From Candidatus Peribacteraceae bacterium (GTDB lineage Bacteria > Patescibacteriota > Gracilibacteria > Peribacterales > Peribacteraceae): a stretch of 64,000 nt of DNA. The DNA is taken from assembly GCA_040081825.1 (NCBI GenBank), contig JBEBFT010000003.1, positions 17,204 through 81,203 on the forward strand. The letters run 5' to 3'. The notes under the pieces are model-generated. The model searched no databases and was not told where the DNA came from. It was given only the letters and a program-made list of their open reading frames with translations. Shown in pieces: positions 23,352 to 63,811 of the stretch; position 1 is the stretch's first letter; every line of letters begins with the position of its first letter. The position numbers and the translations under genes were made by a program.

Positions 23352-23394
23352 GGTGTCGCTTAGTATTATCTATTTTATGAAAGAACGCGCGACA

Positions 23395-23429: not shown

Positions 23430-23439
23430 CCGCGCAAAA

Positions 23440-23514: not shown

Positions 23515-23530
23515 ATTTTATTAAATTCCA

Positions 23531-24067: not shown

Positions 24068-24179
24068 AGAAGAGATGCAATTACTGATACTGTATGCCAA
24101 TTATCTGCTTTCAGTAAACTTCTCAAGACTTTGTACCAATGAGTCATTTCATTGAAGACACCTGTTTGAGGACGTCCTC

Positions 24180-24191
24180 GGGCTGCCAATT
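24180..24191 (+). repeat. 12-nt direct copy of the tRNA-Glu(CUC) 3' end plus flank
   Basis: GGGCTGCCAATT at 24180-24191 is identical to 23506-23517. Confidence 0.6.
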
Positions 24192-24212
24192 ATTGCGTGT
24201 TACACTGACGGC

Positions 24213-24956: not shown

Positions 24957-24977
24957 GAACCCTTCTTTCCTTGATTC

Positions 24978-25772
24978 TCATGCAAGACTGCTCGAGCATA
25001 TCTCACTGTAGGGACAGCGTTTGCATGCAATATGCGATGGAGTAGCTGCAAAATCCTGTGCGCTGATGCGTGTATCGATCTGGCTGATCGCAGCCTTTGC
25101 ATCTTCTAGCTGCGCAGAGGTGCGCGTTGTCAGTAGTTCCATGCATGCCTCTTCCCGTACAGAAAGCAGACTGAGGCTGGCGACGGGTTTCTGCCACAGG
25201 TTCTCCGCAGCAAGCGCGTAGATCGACAGTTGGAGATCTTCGTCGACTTGGCTTTTGTTCGGCAGGGATCCTGTTTTGAAATCGATGATATGCAATTGAT
25301 TGTTCTCGATCTCTACGCGATCGAAGCGACCACTGATCACTGTCTTGGTTTCGACACTATTCAATGAGAATCCTTTTTCCACTGCCAGTACTGTGCGCGG
25401 TTTCTGCATCCACCAATCGAAGAAGTGAACAAGAGCAGCCTCTCCACGCTTGAGTGCACAGTCCTGATCCGTACGTGATGCGTAGCCGTATCCCACAAAT
25501 GACTCTCGCCAGAGATTGACAAGCGTCCTTCTGTCCAACGATGCGTGCTGGTGATGTTCGTGCTCTTCGGTGAAGAGCGTCAGTCGCTCATCCGTTCGGT
25601 GCTCTTTCTGGTAACGCATCTCCAGTTCGCCCCACTTCTTCAGCGTCGAGTGCATGCTCACACCGTAGCTTTCACCCGCTGACATCTGCCGTTCGATGCC
25701 CTGCACGAACGCGTACTCATACTGCTTGGGGCAAGTACGGTACGTCGAAAGTTGAGAGTAGGAGAGTGGCAC
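24978..25772 (-). CDS. PD-(D/E)XK nuclease (RecB/Cas4-like, with Cys cluster)
   Basis: LSYSQLSTYRTCPKQYEY, GRFDRVEIENNQLHIIDFKTG, and C-terminal CKRCPYSEIC, the four Cys of a Cas4/AddB-type cluster. Confidence 0.8.
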   Translation of the reverse strand: MPLSYSQLSTYRTCPKQYEYAFVQGIERQMSAGESYGVSMHSTLKKWGELEMRYQKEHRTDERLTLFTEEHEHHQHASLDRRTLVNLWRESFVGYGYASRTDQDCALKRGEAALVHFFDWWMQKPRTVLAVEKGFSLNSVETKTVISGRFDRVEIENNQLHIIDFKTGSLPNKSQVDEDLQLSIYALAAENLWQKPVASLSLLSVREEACMELLTTRTSAQLEDAKAAISQIDTRISAQDFAATPSHIACKRCPYSEICSSSLA

Positions 25773-25797
25773 GACTGTATTCTATACCCTCCAATGA

Positions 25798-26748
25798 CTA
25801 CGTATTTTGCCCCGCATCATTGGCAGGAGACGTCGTGTTAGGTGTAGTGGTTGTTGCTGGAGGTGTGGTCGTGGGCTGAGTAGGCTGAGGAGCGCTATTC
25901 ACTGCCGGGGGATTGGGATTTGGTGTTGCTGCAGGTGCAGTGGCAGGTGCAGGCGCAGGAGCGGCAAGCTTGGGTTTCTCGTCATGAAACTTCAGTAAGT
26001 CTGGCAGTTTTATGACAATCTCTTTCTTCAGTGCTTCGCTCGCATCCACTTCGCCATCACTCTTCGTTGATTCCAGATTCTTTCCAAACGCATACGCGAT
26101 GTAGTCCTGCGTCAGGAGGTAGAGCGAGGTTCCATTGGAAGCGAGGCCATTCACCTTTGGCTTGAGTGGCGTCCACTCGTTACTTGTAATCCCTTCGAAT
26201 GTGATCTTCTTACCCTTCCCGCTATCACTTCCGATCGCATCGCGAATGTCCATCGTGGCGAGTTGCTGCTCAGCCATATTCTTGATGAAATCGATCCCTG
26301 ACCAGTCTCCTGCCATATTCCAAACCGATCGCTTGATCGCACTGAATGAGAAGCTCGAGAACCACTTAATGACAGGTCCGACCCATGCCACAGTTTCGTA
26401 CTGCTTGAAAAATCCACGCACTGTTCCTGCCGCCTTCTCGAAGTGCTGCTCCTCCTTTGATCCTGTTTCCGAGGTGCTTTCTCCCAAAAATTGCTGCAGT
26501 TCAATTTGTGACTTCAGTGTTTCCAAATCATTCTTTGCGAGCTGGTTAACTTTTGTTTCCACTGTGTCACGCTCTGTTTGTTCGATAGCGATATCATTCG
26601 TCGTGTCTTCATCCTCATTCACTTCGTGTACCGATTTTGCGAGTGTGTTCAGCTCCTCCAGCGTTGCATCTTTAAGATGATCTTCAGTCAGACCTTCTTG
26701 GTTTTGCATCGCTTCCTTTGCTTTTTCAACATCGAAATCGGGTGGCAT
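25798..26748 (-). CDS. Hypothetical protein with Pro/Thr/Ala-rich C-terminal tail
   Basis: Long ORF with no motif. Tail reads APAPAPATAPAATPNPNPPAVNSAPQPTQPTTTPPATTTTP. Start taken at Met 26748. Confidence 0.4.
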   Translation of the reverse strand: MPPDFDVEKAKEAMQNQEGLTEDHLKDATLEELNTLAKSVHEVNEDEDTTNDIAIEQTERDTVETKVNQLAKNDLETLKSQIELQQFLGESTSETGSKEEQHFEKAAGTVRGFFKQYETVAWVGPVIKWFSSFSFSAIKRSVWNMAGDWSGIDFIKNMAEQQLATMDIRDAIGSDSGKGKKITFEGITSNEWTPLKPKVNGLASNGTSLYLLTQDYIAYAFGKNLESTKSDGEVDASEALKKEIVIKLPDLLKFHDEKPKLAAPAPAPATAPAATPNPNPPAVNSAPQPTQPTTTPPATTTTPNTTSPANDAGQNT

Positions 26749-26855
26749 AGTGTGTGTTTTGGAATTCTCCTTATTATACCGCAAAAGCGCCTTTTTTGGT
26801 AGGTGCAAGTTACAGTCACTCTGGTAGTCTCTGCACGAACTTTACCCACTCTTCC

Positions 26856-27203
26856 ATGAACGTAGAACACTTCGAAAAAGGACTTCACTATAGCGATCAG
26901 GACCTTATCCTCCTCGCGACAAAGATCGGAAAACTGGCAACGTACTGCAAGAAACTGAAGGACGAAGGGTCATGGATTCGAGTAGAAGCGGAGAGGCGCG
27001 ATACGAAAAAGGCCAGCGATCAGACCAAGGTCATGATTACGGTTCATCTCCCAAAGAAAATGCTCCGTGTGGAGAGTAGGAAACTCAAAGCATTGGATGC
27101 GGTTGATAGTTGTATCGAGAAGCTGGAGAAGCAGATCAAGAGCTATAAGGAAATGCATACCGGCAAAGGACAGGCACAACTAGCGAGACGCAAGAGAAGC
27201 TAA
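26856..27203 (+). CDS. hpf: Ribosome hibernation factor (S30AE/RaiA/HPF family, short form)
   Basis: Start at ATG 26856. ITVHLPKKMLRVESRKLKALDAVDSCIEKLEKQIKSYKE matches the family C-terminal helix. Confidence 0.7.
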   Translation: MNVEHFEKGLHYSDQDLILLATKIGKLATYCKKLKDEGSWIRVEAERRDTKKASDQTKVMITVHLPKKMLRVESRKLKALDAVDSCIEKLEKQIKSYKEMHTGKGQAQLARRKRS

Positions 27204-27253
27204 AACTGACAGTCTCAATGCTCTCGAGACTTCCGTTCGTTTTGCATTCTTTG

Positions 27254-27931
27254 TTATTTCTTCTTTTCCTCTTTAGGAGCGTCTGCAGCAGGCGCAGCGC
27301 CAGCAGCTGGAGCGGCTCCTTCAGCAGGAGTGGCACCTGCAACGGCAGCAGCATCAGCGACAACTACTACCTCTTCCTTGCGTGGCTCTTGGATTGTCAC
27401 GAGCACTGTTTCAGCACCTTCCTTAATCTCGACACCCTTTGGTACCGCCACCATCGCAACTGTGATGCTATCGTGGAAGTTTTCGAGTTTGGAGATATCG
27501 AGAACGAATGCTTCTGGGATATCACCAGGAAGACAAGATACTTCCAATTCATCATGCACAGTTAGGAGCACGCCTCCCAGACCCTTCACAGCTGGTGATT
27601 CACCGTGAATCACGATTGGCACGTGTGTGGTCACCTTCTTGGTCATATCGACGGCGTAGAAATCGATATGTTCGTATGCACTGGTCACAGGGTCCAATGC
27701 GACTGCATGGATCAGGCATGGCACCTTCTTCCCTGCGACATCTACTTCCACGATCGTGTTCTGACCTGCCTCAGCGAATGCTTTGTGAAACTCCTTGCCG
27801 TTGCACTGAATCTGCGTGTTTTCCATCTTGTTTCCGTACACGATGCACGGCACAACACCCCCTTTTCGGAGGTCATTTGGCTTCTTGGATACATCGCGAG
27901 CCTGTACAGAGAGTGTTACGGACTTCTTCAT
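27254..27931 (-). CDS. rplY: Ribosomal protein L25/Ctc with Ala/Pro/Lys tail
   Basis: LSVQARDVSKKPNDLRKGGVVPCIVYG and IDFYAVDM. Start at Met 27931; the longer ORF-track N-terminus is coded by a repeat. Confidence 0.85.
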   Translation of the reverse strand: MKKSVTLSVQARDVSKKPNDLRKGGVVPCIVYGNKMENTQIQCNGKEFHKAFAEAGQNTIVEVDVAGKKVPCLIHAVALDPVTSAYEHIDFYAVDMTKKVTTHVPIVIHGESPAVKGLGGVLLTVHDELEVSCLPGDIPEAFVLDISKLENFHDSITVAMVAVPKGVEIKEGAETVLVTIQEPRKEEVVVVADAAAVAGATPAEGAAPAAGAAPAADAPKEEKKK

Positions 27932-27983
27932 AGCCGGACGAGTGTAGGGGGCAGGCTGGCTTTGGTCAAGATTCAACGCACAA

Positions 27984-28060
27984 AGTAGATAGTGGTTAGT
28001 GGGTAGTTCACACATGCGTTTTCTCCGCACTAGCCCCTAACCACTACCTACTAGCCACTA
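27984..28060. repeat. Heptad palindrome, AGTGGNT family (copy a)
   Basis: Left arm AGTAGAT AGTGGTT AGTGGGT AGTTCAC, right arm ACTAGCC CCTAACC ACTACCT ACTAGCC ACTAT. The right arm supplies the last codons and the stop (..IVASR*) of the GT2 gene. Confidence 0.7.
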
Positions 28061-28898
28061 TTTTGGGTTTACCTGCCATCACCCCCCACTTCCAAAAATA
28101 CTTCACCGCACTTGCAATATGTGTGCGACCAACAGGGCTCATGACAAGCGACCATGGCCCACCTTCGCTGAGGCGACTTTTGCGATCGGTGCCCGTAATC
28201 GATGGTGCGTACACGACACGTTTGCCTGCTTGCCAGACACGACGACAGAGATCGATGTCCTCGAAGAAAAGGAAGAAGCGCGGATCGAACCCCCCGATCT
28301 CAGTGAACAGATCTTTGCGAATCATCAGACACCCACCTGCGATCCAGTCAGAGTCGCGTTCGGATTCTGGATCACGATCCATATCCAGATAGCGACGCAT
28401 GCGACTAGGGAACCAACGCTTCAAAAATGTTCGCTTGCTGATGACATCCAGAGGACGTGGGAACGCTCTGGATGATTCTCGTACTGAGCCATCGGGATGG
28501 ATGAGCTTTGGTGCGATGATGCCAATCATCGGATCTTCCTGCATTTTTTTGACCATCTTTTCGACGCCAGTTTGTTCCAGCATCTTCACAGGATTATTAA
28601 TGAGAATGAACTGGCCTCGCGCCTGACGGATGCCCTCGTCATATCCTGTTCCAAATCCGAGGTTTGCTCTCGTCTCGACGATACGAACTGGTAATCCACG
28701 CAGGTTCGCACGCAAAAAGCCGATCGATTCACTATCCGAGTGATTATCGATCACGATGATCTCCATGTGATCGGCAATGCTTTGCTTCAGTAGTTGCGTA
28801 GCGCTGGCAACTGTCGCTCGGTGGGAGCGAAAATTGAGAATGACGGCCGAAACGAGGGGCGAATGAATAATTGACAATTGATAATTGATAATGACCAC
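28044..28898 (-). CDS. Family-2 glycosyltransferase
   Basis: VSAVILNFRS, IVIDNHSDSES, FILINNPV and FFLFFEDIDLCRR. GTG start. The first 13 codons (MVIINYQLSIIHS) lie in an AT-rich heptad repeat. Confidence 0.78.
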   Translation of the reverse strand: MVIINYQLSIIHSPLVSAVILNFRSHRATVASATQLLKQSIADHMEIIVIDNHSDSESIGFLRANLRGLPVRIVETRANLGFGTGYDEGIRQARGQFILINNPVKMLEQTGVEKMVKKMQEDPMIGIIAPKLIHPDGSVRESSRAFPRPLDVISKRTFLKRWFPSRMRRYLDMDRDPESERDSDWIAGGCLMIRKDLFTEIGGFDPRFFLFFEDIDLCRRVWQAGKRVVYAPSITGTDRKSRLSEGGPWSLVMSPVGRTHIASAVKYFWKWGVMAGKPKIVASR

Positions 28899-28941
28899 AG
28901 CATAGTATCAATTATTCCATTATTCATTATCAATTATTCAT
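28862..28941. repeat. AT-rich heptad palindrome, AATTGAT/AATGAAT family (copy a)
   Basis: Left arm AATGAAT AATTGAC AATTGAT AATTGAT AATGACC (28862-28896), right arm ATCAATT ATTCCAT TATTCAT TATCAAT TATTCAT (28907-28941). It fills the whole GT2/uvrC divergent spacer. Confidence 0.7.
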
Positions 28942-28942
28942 T

Positions 28943-31255
28943 TTGTCTGAATCAAAAAATCTCCTCAGCAAGCGCGTTTCCAGGGTCACAACCGACTCTG
29001 GCGTCTACCGCTGGCTGGATAAGAAGGGAGAGGTGCTGTACGTCGGCAAGGCAAAGAACCTCCGCAAACGCATGCATACGTACGTCGCCGGAAAGGCGAA
29101 GAACTCTGCGTGGACCGAGATCATGGTCAGGCAGATCGCCGATTTCGAAGTGACGGTCGTCAAAAGCGAGCTCGAGGCATTTATGCTTGAGTCGAATCTG
29201 ATCAAGGAACTAAAACCTAAATACAACATCATGCTCAAGGACGACAAAGGGTACGTCTACGTGCGTGTCTCCACTCACGAGCGCTATCCGCGTGTGGAGA
29301 TCGTGCGACGAATTGGTACGGACAAGGCTCGGTACTTCGGACCCTTCACAACAGGCTCGCAGATTACGGAGCGAACTGTCGAGATGCTGGATTCCATCCT
29401 TCGCTTCCGTGCGTGTGGACAATCTCTGGATGCACTGAATACTGGAAAGACGCTCGCAGGCACACCCTGTCTCGATCATCAGATCGGTCGATGTATCGGT
29501 CTCTGCATCGGAAGTGTCTCGGAAGAGGAATACCTGCGTCGTATCAAAGCTGTCATCAGTTTTTTCCGCGGCAACTTGGCTGACGTGAAGCGCGAAACAG
29601 TGTTGGCGATGAAAGCAGCTGCGGAGGATAAGAAGTTTGAAAAGGCAGCGCGACTTCGCGATGCACTCAGTTTCATCGAGGATCTGGAGAAGCGGCAGTC
29701 GATTTCCGATACGTCTGGCGAGGACATCGATGTCTTCGGTCTCGCGGCACGCGCAGGCAAGTGGCAGGCAGTCGTCCTTCGCCAACGCGATGGCAGACTG
29801 ATTCAGGAGCTTTCCTTTGCGCTCCGCGGCGATGCTGAGACTGTCCCCGACGCTCTCTCGCAACTGATCGCACAGTTTTATACTGAAACAACTGATGTGC
29901 CGTCGATGCTTCTGATCGGCGAACCGATCCTTGACCAGGAAGTGCTGGAAGAGTGGCTGACTGGCATGAAGGGTACGGGAGTAAAGATCCGAGTACCCGA
30001 ACGTGGTCGCAAGTCTGCGCTGCTCACGATGGCTGAGAAGAATGCTGACGAAAAAGTGCAGCAACAGTTTGCCGCGTGGGAATCGGAAGCGAGGAAAGTC
30101 GAGGATGCGTTAGCGGGACTGACTAAAATTCTTTCACTCTCAGAAAAACCAAAACGTATTGAGGGTTATGACATCTCGCATCTCGGTGGGACTGCGACAG
30201 TTGGCAGCATGGTCGTGTTCGAGAACGGCAAACCAAAGCGCGAGCACTATCGCAGTTTCAATATCACGACAGTTCGCGAAGGTGACATCGATGATTACAA
30301 ATCGCTCGCCGAAGTATTAAGGCGACGTCTCAAGTATCTGACAGATGATCTGAAAACTCTTGAAGCGAAGTGGCAGGAGAAGGGCGTGACCATAGGCAAG
30401 GCGAAGAAGGCTGAGCAGCCTTTCATTGTCGATACGTCTACGAAGAATGAAGACACGATCAGTGCTGACAATATTTCGTACAAGGATTACCTCGTTGTCA
30501 GGGCTCAGGATCAGATTATTGGATTTGGTAGACTGTTTGCATACGACGGAGTCATGGCGCTTCGATCAGTATGGCTTGAAGAGAGATACAGAGGGCAGCA
30601 GCTCGGAGCCTTTCTCGTTCGGTCTCTTCTTGCGAAAGTAAAAAAGGGCAAGATCTATGTTCAGTCCATGCCATCGCTGGTCGAATGGTATCAGTCACTC
30701 GGCTTTCAGATCGTGCGGGAACCGCCTGAGGTGCTCAGAAAAAAAAGAGAGTTGTGGCAATCATCGCATCCGGATCAGATTGCCGGAGAGATCATGGTGT
30801 ACATCGTGCATAAGCAGAAACCCGAGGCGTCGTTTACGTCACACCCAGACCTTCTCCTGATCGACGGTGGAAAAGGTCAGCTCTCCGCGGTTGTCTCGGT
30901 GCTTGATGAGCTAGAAATGACGATCCCTGTCGCTGGACTCGCCAAGCGAGAGGAGGAAATCTTCCTGCCTGGGCAATCTCTTCCTGAGGTCGTTCCCAAA
31001 GATTCCGAAGCGCGATTCCTGCTCCAGCGTGTCCGTGACGAAGCGCATCGATTCGCAAACAGTAAACGCGAGAAGCGACTCGCCGCAGTCCTTACCCAGT
31101 CAGCAGTCGATGACATGGCTGGTATCGGAGACATCACAAAGGCAAAACTCGTCCAAAAATTCGGTTCGCTTGCCAAGGCGAAGAATGCGAGTGAGGAGCA
31201 GCTGGCGGAAGTGTTAACCGAGAGACAGTTGAAAGAGTTTCGCAAAAGTGATTAG
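28943..31255 (+). CDS. uvrC: Excinuclease ABC subunit C with an inserted GNAT-like domain
   Basis: GIY-YIG (GVYRWLDKKGEVLYVGKAKNLRKRM), UVR motif, IEGYDISHLGG, PDLLLIDGGKGQL and a C-terminal HhH. About 165 extra residues (aa 466-632) include RSVWLEERYRGQQLGAFLVRSLL. TTG start. Confidence 0.9.
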   Translation: MSESKNLLSKRVSRVTTDSGVYRWLDKKGEVLYVGKAKNLRKRMHTYVAGKAKNSAWTEIMVRQIADFEVTVVKSELEAFMLESNLIKELKPKYNIMLKDDKGYVYVRVSTHERYPRVEIVRRIGTDKARYFGPFTTGSQITERTVEMLDSILRFRACGQSLDALNTGKTLAGTPCLDHQIGRCIGLCIGSVSEEEYLRRIKAVISFFRGNLADVKRETVLAMKAAAEDKKFEKAARLRDALSFIEDLEKRQSISDTSGEDIDVFGLAARAGKWQAVVLRQRDGRLIQELSFALRGDAETVPDALSQLIAQFYTETTDVPSMLLIGEPILDQEVLEEWLTGMKGTGVKIRVPERGRKSALLTMAEKNADEKVQQQFAAWESEARKVEDALAGLTKILSLSEKPKRIEGYDISHLGGTATVGSMVVFENGKPKREHYRSFNITTVREGDIDDYKSLAEVLRRRLKYLTDDLKTLEAKWQEKGVTIGKAKKAEQPFIVDTSTKNEDTISADNISYKDYLVVRAQDQIIGFGRLFAYDGVMALRSVWLEERYRGQQLGAFLVRSLLAKVKKGKIYVQSMPSLVEWYQSLGFQIVREPPEVLRKKRELWQSSHPDQIAGEIMVYIVHKQKPEASFTSHPDLLLIDGGKGQLSAVVSVLDELEMTIPVAGLAKREEEIFLPGQSLPEVVPKDSEARFLLQRVRDEAHRFANSKREKRLAAVLTQSAVDDMAGIGDITKAKLVQKFGSLAKAKNASEEQLAEVLTERQLKEFRKSD

Positions 31256-31256
31256 T

Positions 31257-31273
31257 GCGGCTCTTCGAGCCGC
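31257..31273 (+). terminator. Hairpin 2 nt after the uvrC stop
   Basis: GCGGCTC-ttc-GAGCCGC. The same arm sequence recurs at 47739-47757. Confidence 0.5.
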
Positions 31274-31274
31274 T

Positions 31275-31321
31275 GGTGGTTAGTGACTAGTTTTCTCGCT
31301 AATCACTAGCCACTAAGCACT
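31275..31321. repeat. Heptad palindrome, AGTGGNT family (copy b)
   Basis: GGTGGTT AGTGACT AGT ... ACT AGCCACT AAGCACT. Confidence 0.6.
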
Positions 31322-31363
31322 CGTCTCTGTTATAGTTGCACCCTCATTTCCCAGACCCTTTCT

Positions 31364-31720
31364 ATGAAGAAACTCTCCCTTCTCCTCGGTACCGTTGGCG
31401 GCGCGCTCGCGGGATACGTTTTCTCTAACAAGAAACTTCGTTCCGAGCTCAGTAAAGCGAAGGACGCAACAGAGGCGGCACAGGTCCTGGGCAAGCATCT
31501 CTCCAAAGATGGTCAGACTGTTGCGAAGGAAGTAGGGGAGCTCGCTGAGCAGTACCATCTGGATGACAAGGTGGAGCAGGGCAAGACATTTGTGACCAAG
31601 TACTACAAGTCAGCCAAGGCAGAGGCTGAGAAGTTCCTGGGCAAGAAGGTAAAGGAGGCGACCACAGCGATCAAAAGTGCCAAGGGCAAGGTGGCGGGGA
31701 AGGTCAGGGGCAAGAAGTAG
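31364..31720 (+). CDS. YtxH-like small stress protein
   Basis: N-terminal helix LLLGTVGGALAGYVFS followed by a Lys/Ala/Glu-rich helical region. Confidence 0.5.
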   Translation: MKKLSLLLGTVGGALAGYVFSNKKLRSELSKAKDATEAAQVLGKHLSKDGQTVAKEVGELAEQYHLDDKVEQGKTFVTKYYKSAKAEAEKFLGKKVKEATTAIKSAKGKVAGKVRGKK

Positions 31721-31761
31721 TTTCCTTTCACAAGTACGTATCTGCTATTCGAGTGATCTCG

Positions 31762-32946
31762 CTACAGCAGGCGCTTGTGTCTTGATACTGCGCTACGGAT
31801 TCCTTCGGTTTCTGGAATGCCATAATATTCCAAGTAAGCGTAGAGAGCGTCAATTTCACTGCATTCATCTTTCATAACAAAAAAGTCCACATCTTTAGGC
31901 GATATCGTTTCTAATTTAAGCATCATTGATAGTAATTCTTTTATTACTGCTCTCATTTCCGCTCCCAACACAATAATGGGCAGTGACTTCATTTTTCTGC
32001 ACTGCAAAAGCGTTGCCGCTTCCCACATTTCATCCAAGGTTCCAAAACCTCCAGGGGCTACAAAGATTGCTGGATGCCTTTTATGTCTCTTCATGTGGGT
32101 ATCGTCCCCATTGTCCTGTGTAGTGCGTCCTATCGTAGGAGCAAGAAGTGCTAATTTTCTTGCGAAGAATGACTGCAATGTTAGGTTCAATTGTAGAAAT
32201 GGGTTGAAGGTTTGTTCGAATGGAAGATCGATGCGTATACCCATACTGTGAGTGCTACGAGCCACTGTATCGAGCTGAATTTTTGCGATACCGTCTCCCA
32301 ATTGCGCTTGCTCTTTCAGCTGTCTTATTCTTTCAATGCGACCCTCCATCGCACCTTTGTTTGCTGCCTCCATGATGCCCGGTCCCGCACCCGAATGTGC
32401 ACATTCCATTGTGCCGTCATCCTGCATCAATTCTTGAACGAGTGTTTTGTTCAGCCAACGAACTGCTTCGTATCTTGGGTCACCTTCGCGTGTTCGTGCA
32501 CTACCAAATGTTGTGATAGCGCCGCCGAAATGCTCAGGGAGTAGCTGCTGAGCTACGAAAATGTCTTGCATGTTTTTCAGCCCCTTTGGATCCTGCGCGA
32601 AACTTTGCCATCGTACTTGCTCACTCTGAATCTTCGTTCTTATTTCATCACAATACTCCAGAACTTGAACGGACATCGCATCATCAGTTATTTCCGCTGT
32701 TTCAGCCAACTCGTCGATGTCGGCAGAAGTAGGGTGAACGCCTTCATATGCGACCGAGCGATGCATGGTGAGCAGCGAAAGAGTTTCCGGCTCCATCTTC
32801 TTCCTATTATCACTATCGAGGAAATTGTGCTTCATTTGTGCAGTTTGCACTGCTAGTGCAATGATATTGTTGGTATGACCAGCGGTTCGTAGTTCGTTTA
32901 GAACGTACGAAGGCTGCTGCGGTGGTGAGATGGCTGGAGTTTCCAA
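31762..32946 (-). CDS. LOG-family (TIGR00730 Rossmann) protein with a long N-terminal extension
   Basis: ITTFGSARTREGDP, SGAGPGIMEAANKGA and FVAPGGFGTLDEMWEA. The C-terminal half of the gene is visibly AT-rich. Confidence 0.72.
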   Translation of the reverse strand: METPAISPPQQPSYVLNELRTAGHTNNIIALAVQTAQMKHNFLDSDNRKKMEPETLSLLTMHRSVAYEGVHPTSADIDELAETAEITDDAMSVQVLEYCDEIRTKIQSEQVRWQSFAQDPKGLKNMQDIFVAQQLLPEHFGGAITTFGSARTREGDPRYEAVRWLNKTLVQELMQDDGTMECAHSGAGPGIMEAANKGAMEGRIERIRQLKEQAQLGDGIAKIQLDTVARSTHSMGIRIDLPFEQTFNPFLQLNLTLQSFFARKLALLAPTIGRTTQDNGDDTHMKRHKRHPAIFVAPGGFGTLDEMWEAATLLQCRKMKSLPIIVLGAEMRAVIKELLSMMLKLETISPKDVDFFVMKDECSEIDALYAYLEYYGIPETEGIRSAVSRHKRLL

Positions 32947-42878: not shown

Positions 42879-42953
42879 TGGCAGCCCCACGGAGAATCGA
42901 ACTCCGATTACAGGAATGAAAATCCTGTGTCCTAACCGTTAGACGATGGGGCC
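42879..42953 (-). tRNA. tRNA-Glu (anticodon UUC), CCA encoded
   Basis: The reverse complement reads GGCCCCATCGTCTAACGGTTAGGACACAGGATTTTCATTCCTGTAATCGGAGTTCGATTCTCCGTGGGGCTGCCA, a canonical cloverleaf. Confidence 0.9.
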
Positions 42954-43006
42954 GGAGAGAGAAAAGAACTGACGAACTGCACCTTTTTTCGTTCAGGGCG
43001 TACGGA

Positions 43007-43055
43007 TTGTCATTTGTTCATTGTCAATTGTCAATTCATCTGTCAATTGTCAATT
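43007..43055 (-). repeat. Heptad array (TTGACAA family) with a promoter-like module upstream of tRNA-Glu(UUC)
   Basis: The minus strand reads AATTGACAATTGACAGATGAATTGACAATTGACAATGAACAAATGACAA. TTGACA (43034-43029), 17 nt, then GACAAT (43011-43006). Confidence 0.6.
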
Positions 43056-47766: not shown

Positions 47767-49998
47767 TTAATGTGCGATCTTGATCGGTGCGATGCCGACT
47801 GCCAGCTTTTTCGTCTGGCCGGCGTCGAATTTCACATCGATCACATCTCCGCTGCGCCTGAGTACCGTGCCAATACCGAGTGTTTTGTGCTCGATCCGCG
47901 TTCCTTCTTCTAGTGCATGCTCCAGATGCTCCATCCAGTCCTGGTTTTCATCTTCCGCCTCGAATCCGTGACTGATGCGGGGGCGTGCCACCGGCTTCGG
48001 AGCGGGGGAGTGACTGCTCGCGATCCAGGCGTAGCGACTGGTCATGCTGTCACTCTGCGGTTCGATGACTGCGACTGGCACGTCATCTAAGAATCGGCTT
48101 CTCAGATTTTGCTGTGTGTTACCCCACAGCGTTCTTTGCATTGCATAGAGCAATGTCAGATGTGATTTCGCTCGTGTCATGCCGACGTACATGAGGCGCC
48201 TCTCCTCTTCCAGCTGCTCGCGATCGAAATCCGCCGAACTATGTGGGAGTAGTCCCTCTTCACACCCGACAATCGTGACACGCTCGAACTCCAATCCTTT
48301 GCAGAGATGCAGCGTCATGAGTGTCAGCGCATCGCTTCCTATTCCCACATTATCGGTTTCGGAAATCAGTGATACTTCTTCCAGGAAACTCATGAGTGAT
48401 TCCTGTGGCAACAGGTGATCGTACTTCTTTGTCACGGAGAGCAGTTCCTGCACGTTCTCCCAACGCGTCTCGCCTTCTTCAGTGTCATCTCGCAGCCATG
48501 ACTCAAGACCGATGTCATGGATGATGACGCGCGTGAGTTCGCCTACCGTGTGCGTCTCCGCCTTGGCGCGGAATTGCACGATTTTCTCGCGGAAGTCACT
48601 GAGCCTGCGTATTGTGGGTTCATTCAGTTCCGGAATCGACGCCACTTCGCCAAGCGATCCCCAGAGCGAGATCGCACGATCGTTTGCGAATTGCTGCAGC
48701 TTCTCGAGCGTCGTCGCACCGATCTTTCTGGATGGCACGTTGATGATTCTGAGTAAGGCAATCGTATCCTGCGGATTCTGCACGAGCGAAAGATAGGCGA
48801 GCACATCTTTCACTTCTCTACGTGCGTAAAATTTCACTCCTCCGATAATGCGATACGGTACACCCGCGCGCATGCATGCTTCTTCCAGCAGACGTGACTG
48901 CGCATTCGTGCGGTAGAGAACGACCTGATCTTGTAACGGGATAGCGTTACGCACTTGTTGTACCGATGCCTCAACTGCGAGCTCGGCTTCGCGGCGTTCG
49001 TCCGATACTTCACGCACCAGTACCTTTGCGCCATCGGTACGATCGGTCCACATCTTCTTCTTCGGACGATTGGGATTCACTTGGATCACTCCGTCTGCTG
49101 CGTCCAGCACTTGCTGCGTTGATCTGTAGTTTCGTTCCAGCTTGATCGCTACGGCATCGCCGTACTCTTTCGTAAAATCCAGAATGTTCCTGATGTCCGC
49201 TCCGCGAAATGCGTAGATGGACTGATCTGGGTCACCAATCACGCACAGGTTACGGTGCTTACCGGCAAGAAGCTGCAGGAGTAGATACTGCACATGGTTC
49301 GTGTCCTGATACTCATCGACGTGTAGGTACTTCCACGTATTCTGATATCGCTCCAGCACCTGAGGGTGACTACGAAACAGGCGCACAGTCAGTAGGAGCA
49401 GGTCATCGAAGTCGACGGCGTTACTGGTTTTCAGCATCTCGTTATAGGTCTGATAGACAGCGACGATTTTCAGTTCATCACCCGAGACTGCTTTCACTTT
49501 GGCTTCACTGGGCTCTATCGCTTCGGATTTATATCGACTGATGTGTCCGAGCGCGGTTTTGGGTTTCATTTCCTCGGGTGCAATCTTATGAAATGCGAGC
49601 GCCTCCTTCATCAGCTTCTCCTGATCGTCCGAGTCGTAGATGACGAAGTCTCGGTTTCGCCCGATGTGTTCGATATCGCGTCTCAGGATCCGTACACAGA
49701 TGGAGTGGAACGTTCCTGATACCGGCAGGTGTGTGGGGTCCGTTCCCTGTTCGCTACTCAGCTTCAGAATGCGTGCAATGCGCTCCTTCAGTTCCTTCGC
49801 GGCACGGTTGGTAAATGTGACTGCCAGAATTTCCCACGGACGAACGCCCTGATTCATCAGGTACGCGATGCGATGCGTAATCGTGCGCGTCTTGCCTGAT
49901 CCCGCACCGGCGAGGATGAGCACGGGTCCATGCAGTGTTTCCACAGCCCGTTTCTGTTCGTCATTGAGGCCGGAGAAGATGGGATCAATTACCTGCAT
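47767..49998 (-). CDS. pcrA: UvrD/PcrA-type ATP-dependent DNA helicase
   Basis: LNDEQKRAVE, AGAGSGKTRTITHR, VDEYQDTN, RNYRST, VLYRTNAQSR and LMTLHLCKGLEF. Confidence 0.9.
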   Translation of the reverse strand: MQVIDPIFSGLNDEQKRAVETLHGPVLILAGAGSGKTRTITHRIAYLMNQGVRPWEILAVTFTNRAAKELKERIARILKLSSEQGTDPTHLPVSGTFHSICVRILRRDIEHIGRNRDFVIYDSDDQEKLMKEALAFHKIAPEEMKPKTALGHISRYKSEAIEPSEAKVKAVSGDELKIVAVYQTYNEMLKTSNAVDFDDLLLLTVRLFRSHPQVLERYQNTWKYLHVDEYQDTNHVQYLLLQLLAGKHRNLCVIGDPDQSIYAFRGADIRNILDFTKEYGDAVAIKLERNYRSTQQVLDAADGVIQVNPNRPKKKMWTDRTDGAKVLVREVSDERREAELAVEASVQQVRNAIPLQDQVVLYRTNAQSRLLEEACMRAGVPYRIIGGVKFYARREVKDVLAYLSLVQNPQDTIALLRIINVPSRKIGATTLEKLQQFANDRAISLWGSLGEVASIPELNEPTIRRLSDFREKIVQFRAKAETHTVGELTRVIIHDIGLESWLRDDTEEGETRWENVQELLSVTKKYDHLLPQESLMSFLEEVSLISETDNVGIGSDALTLMTLHLCKGLEFERVTIVGCEEGLLPHSSADFDREQLEEERRLMYVGMTRAKSHLTLLYAMQRTLWGNTQQNLRSRFLDDVPVAVIEPQSDSMTSRYAWIASSHSPAPKPVARPRISHGFEAEDENQDWMEHLEHALEEGTRIEHKTLGIGTVLRRSGDVIDVKFDAGQTKKLAVGIAPIKIAH

Positions 49999-50018
49999 TG
50001 TTGAGAGATTAGCGGAGA

Positions 50019-50078
50019 AATTGATAATTAATAATGAACAATGAATAATTATTCATTATCAATTATTCATTATTCATT
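50019..50078. repeat. AT-rich heptad palindrome, AATTGAT/AATGAAT family (copy b)
   Basis: AATTGAT AATTAAT AATGAAC AATGAAT - AATT - ATTCATT ATCAATT ATTCATT ATTCATT. The arms match at 24 of 30 positions. 50049-50071 is identical to 28920-28942. Confidence 0.7.
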
Positions 50079-57515: not shown

Positions 57516-60269
57516 ATGCTCGATAAGGCTTATAATCCACAGGCAGTCGAAGATGCGCTTTACAAGAAGTGGGAGGAGAGCGGGGCCTTTCGTCCTGAAT
57601 CGTGTGACCCAAAGGGTGAGCCCTTTACGATAGCAATGCCGCCACCGAATGCGACGGGGCAGCTGCATCTCGGACATGCGGTGATGCTCGCACTCCAGGA
57701 CATCTTCACGCGTTTTGCGCGAATGCGGGGTAAGAAGGCACTGTGGTTGCCGGGTACTGATCACGCAGCGATCGCGACCGAGAACGTTGTCATCAAGAAG
57801 CTGCAGAAAGAAGGCATGAAAGATCCGCGCAAAGAACTGGGGCGTGAGAAGTTGGTGCAGACGATTGCGGAGTTTGTCGAAGAGAGCAAAGCGACCATCC
57901 GTGGGCAGGTCAGAAAAATGGGTGCCAGCTGTGACTGGACTCGTGAACGCTACACATTTGAGCCGACACTCAACCGTGCGGTAAATGAAGTGTTTTGCAA
58001 AATGAAGAATGACGGACTCATCTATCGTGGGCATCGCATCGTGAACTGGGATCCGAAGTTGCAGACGACTGTTTCCGACGATGAGCTGGTATACAAGGAA
58101 GAGAAGGGTGCGTTCTATACGTTTCAGTACGGCCCGTTCCAGATCGGAACTGCCAGGCCTGAGACCAAATTCGGTGACAAGTACGTTGTGATGCATCCGA
58201 AAGACAAGAGGTACTCGAAATTCAAACATGGCGATTCATTCGATGCTGAGTGGATCAACGGTCCCGTGCGTGCGACGGTTATTAAAGATGAATCCATCGA
58301 TATGGAGTTCGGCACGGGTGTTATGACCATCACGCCGTGGCACGATCATACCGATTTTGAGATTGCAGAACGTCATGGCCTAGAAAAAGAACAGATCATT
58401 GACTTCCACGGTCGGCTTTTGGACGTCGCCGGTGAGTTCAAAGGCATGAAGATTGACGAAGCGCGTCCCCTCATCGTCGGAAAGCTTGCATCGAAAGGAC
58501 TGCTCGTGAAGACGGACGAGAACTATGTTCATAACAAGGCAGTCAGCCAGCGTGGCGGGGGATCGATCGAGCCACAGATCAAGTTACAGTGGTTCATCGA
58601 TGTGAAGAAGCAGGTTGTTCCTTGGAAGGGGCAGAAGATGAGCCTGAAGGAGATCATGCATGACGTGATTCATCATGGAGATATCAAGATCATTCCAGAT
58701 CGATTCAATAAAACGTATTTTCACTGGATCGATAATCTTCGTGACTGGTGTATCAGTCGCCAGATTTGGTGGGGACATCGAGTGCCGGTTTGGTATTGTG
58801 GGAAGTGTGTAGATGAAAAAGGAAAGTCGAAGGAAGTGATAAGTGGGGAGTGGTTAGTGGCTAGTACGGCTACTCATCACTCGCCACTAACCACTAACCA
58901 CTGTCCCGATTGTGGGAGTTCTATGGATCAGGATTCCGACACCCTCGACACATGGTTCAGCTCCGCGATGTGGACGTGGTCAACGCTACTTGATCCTCAA
59001 AAAGCAGCTGACCCAGCTTTGTCTCTTGCTGAAATGCTGAAGTCGAGTCCCGATTTTCAGAAATTTCATCCGACTTCGGTCATGGAAACGGGCTACGACA
59101 TTCTGTTTTTCTGGGTTGCACGCATGATTCTCATGACGACGTACGCGACAGGACAGATTCCATTTAAAACGGTGTACCTCCACGGACTCATTCGCACGCG
59201 TGATGGACGCAAGATGAGTAAGTCGGATCCGGATACGATGATCGATCCTCTGGATATGATCGCGAAGTACGGAGCAGATGCTCTGCGTCTCAGTATGATC
59301 GTCGGCCAAAGTCCGGGTAACGATTCTCGGCTCTACGAAGAGAAAATCGCGGGGTACCGAAACTTTATTAATAAGCTCTGGAATGCCAGTCGTTTTGTGC
59401 TGATGCAGTGTGAGGAGAAAGGTGTTGATCCCAAAAAAGTGGTCAGTGGTCAGTGGTCAGTGGATAGTTTGTCTTTAGCTGACCGGGCACTACTTCATAG
59501 CTTGCAAACGTTGATTGCTGATGTGACCAGTGGTCTGGAAACGTATGATCTGAGTGCGACGGGAGACCGGCTCTACAGCTTCGTGTGGGATTTCTTCTGC
59601 GACTGGTATTTGGAGCTCAGTAAAGGCGAAGCGAATCCCGAGGTGCTCGTCCATGCACTTCGAACGATCTTGCAGCTCCTGCATCCGTACTGTCCATTTG
59701 TGACCGAAGAGCTCTGGTCGCACGTAGGGCTGAAAGGCGCGCAGAGCCTGATAGCTCATCCGTGGCCTAAGGAAGAGAAAAAGCTGCATGACGAGAGTGC
59801 GTTTGCTGATTTGCACGTTATCATCGAAACGGTGACTGCGATCCGAAGACTGCGAGCAGAAAATGACATCGAAGCGGGTAAAAAAATTACGGTATTCATT
59901 CATTCCAAGAAACAAGTGGCCCTGCTTACATCACAGCAAGAACACTTGTTGCGCATGACCAATGCTGAGTCACTGACAATCGATGCGAAGTCAGCCAAGC
60001 ACGAAAATGCAGCGAGTGCCTTCCTGGCAGATATCGAGATTCATCTTTCGCTTGCGGGCCTCTTCGATCCTGTAAAACTCAAAGCGAGTCTCCTGAAGGA
60101 ACAGGCTGACCTCTCGAAGTATGTGACGATGCTCAAAGGAAAACTGAGTAACAATAGTTTTACTGACAAGGCTCCTCAGGAGCTCGTAGATGCCGAGAAA
60201 CAGAAACTAGAGGCGGCGGAGGAGAAGCTGAAGAAGATCGAGGAGAGACTACTTGGTATTACTGGCTGA
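57516..60269 (+). CDS. valS: Valyl-tRNA synthetase
   Basis: PPPNATGQLHLGH (HIGH), WCISRQIWWGHRVPVWYC, DTLDTWFSS, KMSKS, and a C-terminal coiled coil. Confidence 0.95.
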   Translation: MLDKAYNPQAVEDALYKKWEESGAFRPESCDPKGEPFTIAMPPPNATGQLHLGHAVMLALQDIFTRFARMRGKKALWLPGTDHAAIATENVVIKKLQKEGMKDPRKELGREKLVQTIAEFVEESKATIRGQVRKMGASCDWTRERYTFEPTLNRAVNEVFCKMKNDGLIYRGHRIVNWDPKLQTTVSDDELVYKEEKGAFYTFQYGPFQIGTARPETKFGDKYVVMHPKDKRYSKFKHGDSFDAEWINGPVRATVIKDESIDMEFGTGVMTITPWHDHTDFEIAERHGLEKEQIIDFHGRLLDVAGEFKGMKIDEARPLIVGKLASKGLLVKTDENYVHNKAVSQRGGGSIEPQIKLQWFIDVKKQVVPWKGQKMSLKEIMHDVIHHGDIKIIPDRFNKTYFHWIDNLRDWCISRQIWWGHRVPVWYCGKCVDEKGKSKEVISGEWLVASTATHHSPLTTNHCPDCGSSMDQDSDTLDTWFSSAMWTWSTLLDPQKAADPALSLAEMLKSSPDFQKFHPTSVMETGYDILFFWVARMILMTTYATGQIPFKTVYLHGLIRTRDGRKMSKSDPDTMIDPLDMIAKYGADALRLSMIVGQSPGNDSRLYEEKIAGYRNFINKLWNASRFVLMQCEEKGVDPKKVVSGQWSVDSLSLADRALLHSLQTLIADVTSGLETYDLSATGDRLYSFVWDFFCDWYLELSKGEANPEVLVHALRTILQLLHPYCPFVTEELWSHVGLKGAQSLIAHPWPKEEKKLHDESAFADLHVIIETVTAIRRLRAENDIEAGKKITVFIHSKKQVALLTSQQEHLLRMTNAESLTIDAKSAKHENAASAFLADIEIHLSLAGLFDPVKLKASLLKEQADLSKYVTMLKGKLSNNSFTDKAPQELVDAEKQKLEAAEEKLKKIEERLLGITG
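58835..58904 (+). repeat. Heptad palindrome, AGTGGNT family (copy c), translated inside valS
   Basis: Ten 7-nt units, including the perfect 13-bp inverted repeat AGTGGTTAGTGGC (58849-58861) / GCCACTAACCACT (58883-58895). Read as EVISGEWLVASTATHHSPLTTNHC. Confidence 0.75.
59438..59466 (+). repeat. Tandem heptads AGTGGTC x3 plus AGTGGAT inside valS (copy d, left arm only)
   Basis: AGTGGTCAGTGGTCAGTGGTCAGTGGAT is read as VVSGQWSVDS, parallel to SGEWLVAS in copy c. Confidence 0.65.
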
Positions 60270-62251: not shown

Positions 62252-62322
62252 GCGCGGGTCTGTAGACCCACGCATCGCAATATCTTGCGCCTTCACCGTA
62301 GCGCAGGTCTACTGACCTGCGC
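62252..62322. repeat. REP doublet downstream of RAYT-2
   Basis: GCGCGGGTC-tgta-GACCCACGC (62252-62273, one mismatch) and GCGCAGGTC-tact-GACCTGCGC (62301-22), in mutually inverted loop orientation. Confidence 0.7.
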
Positions 62323-62344: not shown

Positions 62345-62842
62345 TTATGTGACTAGCGAATCGTGTAGCGGTGTCACATCCCATTTTCTGGATGCTGAGG
62401 ACCATCGATATTCCTTTGGATCTTCAACCAATCCTGCATCGATGGGATTATGGTGAATGTATCGAAGTGCGTGCCACGGCTTGTCAGGAATCAGTATATG
62501 AAATCGTGGTTGCCACAGTTTTCCGTTACCAATCGCATATGTTACTCCCGCTTTATAGCTTTTCATGATGGATGAAATCTTTTCAGGCTTGCGAACACGT
62601 ATCAGAAAGTGGCAGTGGTCAGGCATGATGACAAAGCCATGTAAGAAAAAAGGTCGTAATGATTGCACACGGTACAAGCATTCAACAGCTTCACGGGCAA
62701 GGGCATCATCAAGGAAGTAGGGAATGCGATCACGTGTCACGGTTGTGATGAACATCACTGAATCATTCTGGATTGGATGTCTTTGGGTCATGAATGTATT
62801 GTGTGGATATTGATGACGCTTTGGAATCGTAGATGCACACAT
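62345..62842 (-). CDS. REP-associated tyrosine transposase (IS200-like HUH Y1 family)
   Basis: HUH motif MPDHCHFLIRV, WQPRFHILI, and the catalytic-Tyr block LRYIHHNPIDAGLV. The true start is probably Met 62791 (MTQRHPIQ...). Confidence 0.78.
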   Translation of the reverse strand: MCASTIPKRHQYPHNTFMTQRHPIQNDSVMFITTVTRDRIPYFLDDALAREAVECLYRVQSLRPFFLHGFVIMPDHCHFLIRVRKPEKISSIMKSYKAGVTYAIGNGKLWQPRFHILIPDKPWHALRYIHHNPIDAGLVEDPKEYRWSSASRKWDVTPLHDSLVT

Positions 62843-62850
62843 TGAACGAC

Positions 62851-62872
62851 GCGCGGGTCAGTAGACCCGCGC
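62851..62872. repeat. REP hairpin upstream of RAYT-2
   Basis: GCGCGGGTC-agta-GACCCGCGC is perfect. Its reverse complement equals the 62301 hairpin except for one compensated base pair. Confidence 0.7.
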
Positions 62873-63027
62873 TAGATGTGGGAAATTATGTTCTGATGTA
62901 TAGCAGAACGTTTCATGATTTTTCGTACATCAACTTACATATGTCTATTCTCATTTGCCCGTTCTGAGACATTATTTTTCATTCGTTCATTCCCATGAAC
63001 ATATTTCAGACACCCTTTCAATCACTA

Positions 63028-63049
63028 GCGCAGGTCTACCGACCTGCGC
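63028..63049. repeat. REP hairpin upstream of RAYT-2 (distal)
   Basis: GCGCAGGTC-tacc-GACCTGCGC, in direct orientation relative to the 62301 copy. The shared flank reads TAGCGCAGGTCTAC. Confidence 0.7.
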
Positions 63050-63424
63050 GCAGGCATTCAATCAATAGTCGCATAACAAAAAAGCCACCTGCGTGGCCTT
63101 TTTGTGTATGTGTTCGCCTCCTTAGCGATGAGTGAGCTCTGAAGATGAGAGTCATCACTCCGCCTACGAGCGGAGGGTGCACGGTGGGGGAGAAAGCCCC
63201 GATTCTCTGCCTTGCTCTGGCACTTATTTCTCCTCGCTACCTCACGAGGTCCCCGTACCGGTTCACACGCGGTGCATAAAGCGCCGGGAGAACACTGGGG
63301 AGGAAGGAATGCGCCCTCGTCACGATCTTTCTCTTTCGTACATGGGCGACATCGCAGAGCAGAGAGGATGGCAATCGCTGTGGATAATGAATGCAGCAAC
63401 GGCTGCTATCCTCTCTACGAAGAA

Positions 63425-63510
63425 GTACGTAGTACGTGGTATGTCGTACGTGGTATGAGAATTTTCTTTCGTTTCGTATACAACGTACTACGTACTACAT
63501 ACTCGATACT
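63425..63510. repeat. Heptad palindrome, GTACGTA/GTATGTA family
   Basis: Left arm GTACGTA GTACGTG GTATGTC GTACGTG GTATGAG, a 16-nt spacer, then right arm GTATACA ACGTACT ACGTACT ACATACT CGATACT. Confidence 0.65.
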
Positions 63511-63811
63511 ATTCGGTGACATTGATGTGAATGAGCAGATGTCTTCCGGTTCATGTTTGTGTTGGTGGCTCCGGAGCCATGCCCTCCCCCTAAGAGAGCG
63601 TTTCCTATGTGTGTATGTGTATTCTGATTTCTTCCTGAGATATTTGCTCCTGAAGAAATCATGCCATTGTATCCACCCAGAGAATATCCGCAAGTAAGTA
63701 GACTAGTGTGAATCTAGAAATGTGTTGTTGATCAACTTCTGTATACAGCTCTACTTTGATGTTTTTGGCTTCTCTTCCACGTTTCCTGTCTTTCCTCTAC
63801 ACTTTCTTTCG

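Follow-up and report, generated by a model that had tools for sequence, protein, structure and literature searches.

How does a palindrome built of seven-nucleotide units come to lie, in frame, inside an essential gene? The question is raised by a stretch of 64,000 nucleotides (hereafter the window, numbered from its first letter) in contig JBEBFT010000003.1 of a Candidatus Peribacteraceae bacterium, where valS, the gene for valyl-tRNA synthetase (ValRS), carries such an element between the two zinc knuckles of its product. Named ValRS homologues and 80 genome loci assign the host genome to Candidatus Peribacteria (Peregrinibacteria, within the Candidate Phyla Radiation, CPR). An earlier note on this DNA, made from the letters alone, had seen in the element a mobile or recombinogenic palindrome with a precedent in Rickettsia. 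Our analysis favors another account, in which the element is probably an in-frame member of a lineage-wide set of heptanucleotide arrays, here in hairpin form. These arrays resemble the short tandemly repeated repetitive (STRR) sequences of cyanobacteria, and the element would be no discrete transposon but a repeat evolving in place in a permissive loop of ValRS.

The valS hairpin and the constraint on it

The reading frame of valS is intact and includes HIGH-type (HLGH) and KMSKS motifs. Its product matches Pfam tRNA-synt_1, Anticodon_1 and Val_tRNA-synt_C as well as thousands of ValRS sequences. The element and its surroundings are laid out as follows.

57516-60269, plus strand: valS, the host gene, encoding a valyl-tRNA synthetase of 917 aa (identified from the open reading frame (ORF) list, homologues, Pfam and an AlphaFold2 model)
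58797-58808, plus strand: first zinc knuckle, CGKC (Cys428-Cys431), which aligns with CEDC of the T. thermophilus ValRS 1GAX
58835-58865, plus strand: 5' arm, 31 nt, AGTGATA AGTGGGG AGTGGTT AGTGGCT AGT, with an AGTG core every 7 nt
58866-58871, plus strand: apical loop, 6 nt, ACGGCT (codons Thr-Ala), missing from the two closest orthologues in the alignment
58872-58902, plus strand: 3' arm, 31 nt, ACTCATC ACTCGCC ACTAACC ACTAACC ACT, with a CACT core every 7 nt
58902-58913, plus strand: second zinc knuckle, CPDC (Cys463-Cys466), abutting the 3' arm
59438-59463, plus strand: second in-frame heptad array, (AGTGGTC)x3.7, encoding VVSGQWSV (Tandem Repeats Finder, TRF); direct repeat only

The earlier note had read 58835-58904 as ten consecutive 7-nt units (AGTGATA AGTGGGG AGTGGTT AGTGGCT AGTACGG CTACTCA TCACTCG CCACTAA CCACTAA CCACTGT) containing a perfect 13-bp inverted repeat, AGTGGTTAGTGGC / GCCACTAACCACT, at 58849-58861 / 58883-58895, and both descriptions are exact in sequence and position. 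A 31-nt arm, a 6-nt loop and a second 31-nt arm is nevertheless a better parse than ten units; the final base of the 3' arm is the first base of the Cys463 codon, TGT. Given the periodicity of both arms, pairing one unit out of register is possible as well. Folding energies over 81 nt are -36.4 kcal/mol for RNA (z -5.27) and -19.3 kcal/mol for DNA (z -5.30), and in neither case did any of 200 dinucleotide shuffles fold as well. The longest exact word common to the copies of this repeat is the 12-mer AGTGGTTAGTGG, which occurs four times in the window, with units varying both within and between copies. Allowing up to two mismatches, it occurs 18 times in the 64 kb against 3.1 expected, a count that none of 100 shuffles reached.

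Across the element only one of the six frames is open, that of valS, and in this frame it reads (E)VISGEWLVASTATHHSPLTTNHC, between CGKC and CPDC. Restoring the family unit at the second 5' unit would create an in-frame TAG, and restoring the family unit CCACTAA at the last 3' unit would create an in-frame TAA. In the codon phase that puts unit position 7 first, T is avoided in all three orthologues (that of the window and its two closest relatives). With the gene uninterrupted and evidently functional, we infer with good support that the element is read through into protein, as the earlier note had supposed.

The segment also stands apart in the predicted structure. In an AlphaFold2 model of ValRS built from 47 orthologues (mean predicted local distance difference test score, pLDDT, 79.4), the sole segment with a pLDDT below 50 is residues 442-459, which lies within the element (residues 440-463) and has no secondary structure. 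The T. thermophilus enzyme 1GAX aligns over both knuckles with 14 residues fewer between them, and many Peribacteria ValRS have a short, Cys-free version of this loop (loop 1), which bears out the statement in the earlier note that the linker is shorter elsewhere. The hairpin peptide is probably tolerated as a disordered surface loop, in keeping with the idea that an essential gene accommodates the palindrome in frame. At exactly the position of the heptad hairpin loop, the Peribacteria ValRS P0033, P0048, P0049 and L132 contain an inserted histidine-phosphatase domain of about 200 aa (His_Phos, PF00300).

The pattern of substitution tells which level of the sequence is constrained. Comparison of the three close orthologues over the whole gene gives nucleotide identities of 0.84, 0.90 and 0.49-0.51 at codon positions 1, 2 and 3. 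The AGTG and CACT cores, which fall in all codon phases, are identical between orthologues at 33-37 of 38 positions (87-97%), and the non-core positions of the units at 10-11 of 24 (42-46%), so that the latter are as diverged as synonymous sites. Codons within the element follow the motif, with Val always GTG, Ser AGT and Thr ACT; elsewhere in valS, ACT accounts for 9-16% of Thr codons. These patterns show that constraint acts on the DNA and not on the protein.

Alignment of ValRS orthologues across the CxxC...CxxC region shows that both of the closest sequences (L001 and L002, with 80% and 79% identity) have a heptad element there, identical in site and frame but built of other units. Loop 1 of L001 reads (AGTGGCC)x4, then AGT ACTGATC ACCGATT ACCGACT ACTGACC, the 3' arm being degenerate. 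That of L002 reads AGTGATG AGTGATG AGTGGCA AGTGACA, then ACT ACTGATC ACTCATC ACTGATC ACTCATC ACT, so that its unit types are AGTGATG / CATCACT where those of the window are AGTGGTT / AACCACT. In the symmetric register, 24-25 of 31 positions are paired in each of the three. The L002 hairpin is strong (z -7.0); the L001 hairpin has decayed (z -1.3), its 5' arm having been homogenized to four identical units that the 3' arm did not follow. The element is thus present at the same site in 3/3 of the closest sequences, with more distant ValRS having other loop forms. A scan of metagenome contigs for closer valS relatives returned none above 75% identity, and none of the collections searched contained a relative whose ValRS was closer than about 80% identity.

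Heptads recur in loop 1 at much greater distances. Two-armed elements are found in L009, L033 and L103, where GAGCGAT-type arms face AAAGCTC/ACAGCTC, and in L131, a contig of the closed Candidatus Peribacter riflensis genome, where AGGAATT faces AATTCCT. Direct-only arrays occupy the loop in L011, L023, L030, L031, L066, L090 and L163 and in the distant L120. The last of these, a CPR ValRS with 45% identity, has (AAATCCG)x4 in frame at the position of the first knuckle (1507-1623), and the hot spot therefore reaches beyond Peribacteria. In a neighbor-joining tree of ValRS with the loops masked, heptad and zinc-knuckle forms of the loop are scattered among short-loop forms, but the tree is poorly resolved, its internal branches being very short.

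Where loop 1 is two-armed, its arms belong together. Across seven such species, duplexes between native arms average -30.1 kcal/mol and those between chimeric arms -18.0 kcal/mol, and the native assignment is the best of all 5040 permutations. This arm-only test replaced a folding of whole-loop chimeras, in which differing lengths and structure inside each half were confounding factors. At the level of units the result is strong: arms match within species and not between them. The fold itself is dispensable, because the L001 hairpin has decayed, other species have direct-only arrays in the same loop, and the array in the second loop of valS has no hairpin.

That second array, at 59438-59463, has no inverted partner and no fold (z +1.2). 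It sits after NKLWNASRFVLMQCE, in a loop of the anticodon-binding domain between helices 604-634 and 654-675 (AlphaFold2 secondary structure). In eleven loci this loop (loop 2) has a fixed length (41 aa by the anchors chosen; the common non-periodic form has 40 aa) and is 7-nt periodic with species-specific units. These stand in register, as (AAATGGA)3 in L009, (CAGTGGA)3 in L084, (CAGTGGT)3 in the window and (AGATGGA)3 in L034, with AAATTGA in L013, CAATTGA in L002 and GAATGAA in L001. Each substitution is common to all units of one species, so that the units evolve in concert while the length stays constant. Loops 1 and 2 of ValRS are heptad hot spots in many Peribacteria. The earlier note had overlooked these hot spots and the second valS array, as well as the further heptad families of the window.

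Heptad arrays in the window and across Peribacteria

Arrays of this period are found throughout the window and its relatives. A lag scan of the window gave eight arrays at lag 7 and none at lags 3-6 and 8-11; TRF recovered the same arrays, and 50 Markov shuffles of the window yielded no lag-7 array. The Peribacteria loci, 1.39 Mb in all, contain 104 lag-7 arrays, compared with 15, 17 and 34 for lags 6, 8 and 9, and an inverted partner lies within 120 nt of 35 of the 104, against 2 in the control. For pairs of arrays more than 300 nt apart, the unit is identical in 10.8% of pairs within a genome and 0.7% between genomes (0/500 label permutations); unit families are genome-specific. In the window, an AGTGGTT-type family is present at four loci (27984-28060, 31247-31321 and both valS arrays), an ACAATTG/ATAATTG-type family at 23392, 28862-28955, 43006 and 50018-50078, and a GTAYGTA-type family at two (18488 and 63424-63511). 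Five of the loci are intergenic two-armed hairpins, with z from -2.7 to -6.7.

27984-28060, unstranded: heptad hairpin of the AGTGGTT/AACCACT family (z -4.78), between a glycosyltransferase gene and rplY (L25/TL5), neighbors named by Pfam
31247-31321, unstranded: heptad hairpin of the AGTGGTT/AACCACT family (z -6.74), directly after the stop of a uvrC-GNAT fusion gene (28943-31255)
28862-28955, unstranded: heptad hairpin of the AT-rich family (ATAATTG/ACAATTG against CAATTAT; z -3.59), in an intergenic spacer
50018-50078, unstranded: heptad hairpin of the AT-rich family (z -2.74), between uvrD (47767-49998, minus strand; Pfam) and the next gene
63424-63511, unstranded: heptad hairpin of the AGTACGT/ACGTACT family (z -4.83)
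23392-23427, plus strand: direct (ACAATTG)n array, directly upstream of tRNA-Glu(CTC) at 23440-23514 (plus strand)
43006-43055, minus strand: direct (ACAATTG)n array in minus-strand reading, directly upstream of tRNA-Glu(TTC) at 42879-42953 (minus strand)
18488-18517, unstranded: direct (GTATGTA)n array, after the stop of a tRNA-U5-methyltransferase-like gene and followed by a GC-rich stem-loop

The earlier note had cited family copies at 27984-28060 and 31275-31321 as clearly non-coding. Both are real hairpins with stops in all six frames; the first, however, is not wholly non-coding, since its right arm (28044-28060) comprises the last codons and the TAG stop (28044-28046) of the glycosyltransferase gene (28044-28898, minus strand). 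The hairpin at 31247-31321 encloses a GC-rich stem-loop, GCGGCTC-TTC-GAGCCGC. An exact E. coli Chi octamer, GCTGGTGG, at 31271-31278, the junction of this stem-loop with the heptad hairpin, was taken as a probable coincidence. The UvrC-like protein encoded at 28943-31255 on the plus strand (GIY-YIG, UVR and UvrC RNase H) includes a GNAT acetyltransferase domain at residues 514-593, an unusual fusion.

Both tRNA-Glu genes are preceded by (ACAATTG)n arrays in matching relative orientation, and these arrays, which hold phased TTGACA hexamers, could be promoter-related. The array at 23392-23427 is enclosed by a GCGCG/CGCGC clamp (z -6.3). An intrinsic-terminator role for the heptad hairpins found no support, as T-tails are missing and a consensus terminator scan of 18000-32000 flagged none of them. 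A search of the whole window with Rfam at the gathering score returned two tRNAs only.

Approximate ORF assignment of the first 86 arrays of the Peribacteria loci puts 43 inside ORFs, 29 at ORF edges and 14 in intergenic DNA, which, given the dense coding of these genomes, suggests that arrays are depleted from coding DNA. Several conserved proteins carry them in frame all the same. Three species have arrays of differing units in the DinB/Pol IV linker between IMS and IMS_C (L053 13353-13393, L058 5102-5138 and L064 14174-14202), two have them in PNPase (L021 6889-6919 and L041 142-179), and UvrD has them in L053 (1083-1122) and L035 (2413-2440).

Competing accounts of the element

On the account we favor, the element would be an old resident of the variable loop between the ValRS zinc knuckles. 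Its units would be turned over and homogenized by replication slippage or intra-array conversion, and an imperfect complementarity of its arms would be maintained through hairpin-templated repair (template switching), through weak selection on the fold, or through both. Translation would act as a filter only, requiring a net length that is a multiple of three and the exchange of TAG- or TAA-making units for variants, and the low-complexity peptide would be tolerated as part of a disordered surface loop. Quasipalindrome correction by intramolecular template switching (the Ripley model) drives imperfect inverted arms towards complementarity, and satellite repeats undergo concerted evolution, in which a change comes to be shared by every unit of an array; both are general mutational mechanisms, applied here to the valS locus by analogy. 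We infer that slippage, conversion or template switching is the mechanism and that ValRS derives no benefit from the element. The suggestion in the earlier note that the palindrome is recombinogenic is plausible in this light, with units homogenized within arrays and unit families common to loci of one genome.

Several points weigh against evolution in place by these means. Local slippage alone leaves unexplained the recurrence of a few unit families at many loci within a genome, and it gives no reason why the valS loops should carry the genome's own family, as they do in the window, L163, L023, L060 and L066. The 5' arm in the window has identical cores but differing variable positions, a pattern that whole-unit homogenization would not yield and that hints at selection on the AGTG/CACT cores. 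A one-unit slip in an essential gene would be a lethal frameshift, and homogenization at constant length would therefore need conversion or three-unit steps. At the level of single pairs, the three sequences offer a modest 3 compensatory changes against 5 one-sided ones; the arms for the duplex test were picked by eye, and the immediate clade consists of three sequences only. Taken together, the shared dispersed families and the conservation of the cores leave room for a dispersing or sequence-reading agent.

One such agent would be a sequence-directed process (ectopic conversion, an enzyme acting on single-stranded DNA hairpins, or a protein reading AGTG/CACT at a 7-nt phase) that keeps the heptad hairpins uniform as an actively maintained, genome-wide population and rewrites arrays in essential genes with the genome's current unit. 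We regard this as a possibility of rather low probability. If it were true, a non-coding "repeat ecology" would keep overwriting the coding loops of ValRS, DinB, PNPase and UvrD.

A second kind of agent would be transposition. The heptad hairpins might be small non-autonomous mobile elements, comparable to MITEs (miniature inverted-repeat transposable elements) or to REPINs, the inverted doublets of repetitive extragenic palindromes (REPs). They would be copied in trans, possibly by the REP-associated tyrosine transposase (RAYT) encoded 2 kb downstream of valS, and the valS copy would then be an in-frame insertion similar to a Rickettsia palindromic element (RPE). Family-specific units do recur at several loci of one genome, both valS loops included, and the copies have a common layout, in which 4-5 units are followed by a short loop and then 4-5 complementary units. 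They have no conserved element sequence, termini or length, however, and differ in loop, unit number and unit variants; no target or other flanking duplication was seen around any copy, and the window contains no insertion sequence with matching ends. The valS arrays are, moreover, orthologous over deep divergence, with the copy at the same site in the two closest orthologues (~80%) and a related array in far more distant lineages, which points to evolution in place. For these reasons we find mobility doubtful and do not follow the earlier note in likening the element to the mobile palindromes of Rickettsia.

The transposase and its flanking repeats bear directly on this question.

62345-62842, minus strand: RAYT (NCBIfam NF047646, 90.2 bits against a cutoff of 80; Pfam Y1_Tnp)
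62252-62273, 62301-62322, 62851-62872 and 63028-63049, unstranded: four GC-rich 22-nt palindromes, GCGCRGGTC-N4-GACCYGCGC, flanking the RAYT and found nowhere else in the 64 kb

The RAYT is a bona fide member of its family, with an HUH-like DHCHF motif and a Tyr motif, YIHHNP. A heptad hairpin (63424-63511) lies in its 5' extragenic region, and the REP center, GGTCAGTAGACC, contains GGTCAGT, a rotation of the unit AGTGGTC, for which the chance of coincidence, estimated by hand, is a few percent. The palindromes flanking the gene nevertheless have a build unrelated to that of the heptad hairpins and show no dispersal through the window, and the gene is conserved together with its REPs in L085. 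Peribacteria widely possess RAYT homologues, and these are flanked by species-specific GC-rich hairpins of their own in place of heptads (seen at 5 other Peribacteria RAYT loci); at two RAYT loci, L165 and L167, 20 kb of sequence contain no heptad arrays. The RAYT was therefore rejected as main driver of the heptads, given that its cognate repeats are GC-rich REPs and that RAYT loci are not heptad-rich; it is probably unrelated to them and is kept only within the low-probability rival above. To our knowledge, REP-RAYT systems have seemingly gone undescribed in the CPR. In the right flank of the RAYT, an intergenic segment at ~63079-63330 (minus strand) is conserved at the DNA level with L085 and ends on that strand in a terminator-like hairpin, AAAAAGGCCACGCAGGTGGCTTTTTT. 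The segment is possibly a small RNA that has escaped annotation; Rfam at E <= 1 around 62850-63760 returned no relevant family.

It is also unlikely, in our view, that the hairpin is itself a selected nucleic-acid structure with the peptide as a by-product, whether as a stem in valS mRNA (for processing, stability or pausing) or as a motif bound by a protein that reads AGTG/CACT cores spaced by 7 nt. The conservation of the cores in every codon phase beside neighbors that have drifted like synonymous sites would fit such selection well, as would the matching of arms within species (1/5040 permutations), the strong folds in the window (z -5.3) and in L002, and the intergenic relatives at gene ends, of which 31247-31321, directly after a stop codon, is an example. 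A required structure is hard to reconcile, however, with the decay of the L001 orthologue and with the many Peribacteria ValRS that are insert-free or have direct-only arrays at the same site. The absence of T-runs after the hairpins, the empty terminator scan and the lack of an Rfam match also weigh against it, and several unrelated unit families per genome are a poor fit to a single specific binding protein.

Selection at the level of the protein, for instance on a 7-residue-periodic peptide that contacts tRNA or stabilizes the zinc knuckles, would make the DNA periodicity a mere consequence, and we consider it highly improbable. The insert does lie between conserved knuckles, and certain residues recur among orthologues (V-x-S-G-x-W in loop 1; G, W and D in loop 2). 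Yet those residues show no synonymous variation, the cores are conserved at all three codon positions, and the arms are reverse complements of each other, a property without meaning for a protein. Non-coding DNA in which all frames have stops contains the same units, disorder is predicted for the segment, and unrelated peptides occupy the same site in other species. The codon-phase and synonymous-codon evidence largely refutes this explanation. Finally, short repeats can mislead metagenome assemblers, but mis-assembly or mis-binning of a repeat into valS can be dismissed, since independent Logan, JGI and GenBank metagenome assemblies, along with the closed Ca. Peribacter riflensis contig, have homologous in-frame arrays at the same two sites and keep the reading frame throughout.

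Known repeats and what the element means

Among the long-unit simple sequence repeats (SSRs) of prokaryotes, heptanucleotides are known to be the most abundant class, and slippage of the polymerase is a proposed cause (PMC4679880, PMC4692102). Published work on them covers cyanobacteria, Xanthomonas and Beggiatoaceae (PMC4692102, PMC4679880). Examples are STRR1-3 of Calothrix and Nostoc and, among the heptanucleotide SSRs of other bacteria, GGGAATC in Xanthomonas and TAACTGA in Beggiatoaceae. The Peribacteria arrays belong to this broad class, since they consist of tandem head-to-tail 7-nt units above chance (lag scans, TRF) and since a few unit families occupy many loci per genome, the ACAATTG/ATAATTG type being counted at 5 loci of the window. 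Like STRR, they are dispersed, form partly inverted pairs capable of stem-loops, and vary in length and sequence at orthologous sites, so the resemblance to cyanobacterial STRR remarked on in the earlier note is a sound one. Known repeats of the broad class are also occasionally translated, as LSVISYQ repeats in hypothetical proteins (PMC4692102, PMC4679880). In the strict sense, STRR are repeats of CCCCAGT, TTGGTCA or CAACAGT in heterocystous cyanobacteria, which the present element, with its unit AGTGGTT and its Peribacteria host, is not. The STRR2 unit TTGGTCA does have identical counterparts, in L049 (16659-16689) and, in reverse orientation (complement AATGACC), in L011 (11317-11346), where the array lies in frame in ValRS loop 1. 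The element differs from STRR in its host, a CPR genome of ~1.2 Mb rather than a cyanobacterium or proteobacterium, in that essential conserved genes have arrays within their reading frames (two sites in ValRS, the DinB linker, PNPase and UvrD), and in that the valS copy is two-armed with arms that co-vary between species.

Other palindromic repeats offer partial parallels. Ogata and colleagues in 2000, and later Rickettsia genome papers, are said to have described RPEs as palindromic repeats found between genes and in frame in conserved protein genes, at positions compatible with function. RPEs are 100-150 bp long, with family consensus sequences and the presence/absence patterns typical of insertions. 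The valS element is similar in lying in frame in a conserved protein gene at a permissive site. It differs in that its copies share the heptad unit alone, with a 4-nt core every 7 nt as the only consensus in place of a ~100-150-bp sequence common to all, and in its tandem units and their turnover in place. With REP/REPIN-RAYT systems the heptads have in common short hairpin-forming palindromic repeats in extragenic space, where inverted doublets are overrepresented (35/104 arrays; five intergenic hairpins in the window), and the window does contain a RAYT gene. Unlike REPs and REPINs, however, the heptad hairpins are also found inside genes and have no highly abundant conserved 16-mer.

The earlier note knew of no description of this combination, and in the literature searched we too found no account of heptanucleotide repeats in CPR genomes or in frame in housekeeping genes. 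The Peribacteria genome paper makes no mention of heptad repeats (PMC4736985). Heptanucleotide arrays themselves are already known; what seems to be new here is a heptad hairpin in frame in an essential CPR gene, with arms that co-vary.

These observations extend heptanucleotide (STRR-like) repeats to the Candidate Phyla Radiation. CPR genomes of ~1.2 Mb are usually called streamlined. There are also practical consequences, as CPR phylogeny uses marker genes whose alignments are inflated and distorted by heptad inserts, which may also break assemblies. Heptads have landed or been retained repeatedly in the two ValRS loops and the DinB linker, and these sites provide a natural, alignable time series for asking how heptads originate, why their unit is 7 nt long and how inverted arrays stay complementary, questions that have been open since STRR were described in 1990. 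In valS, the 4-nt cores (87-97%) are better conserved than first and second codon positions (84-90%), whatever their codon phase. The locus is an unusually clean case in which part of the gene for an essential, universal enzyme is ruled by DNA-level repeat dynamics and not by selection on the protein.

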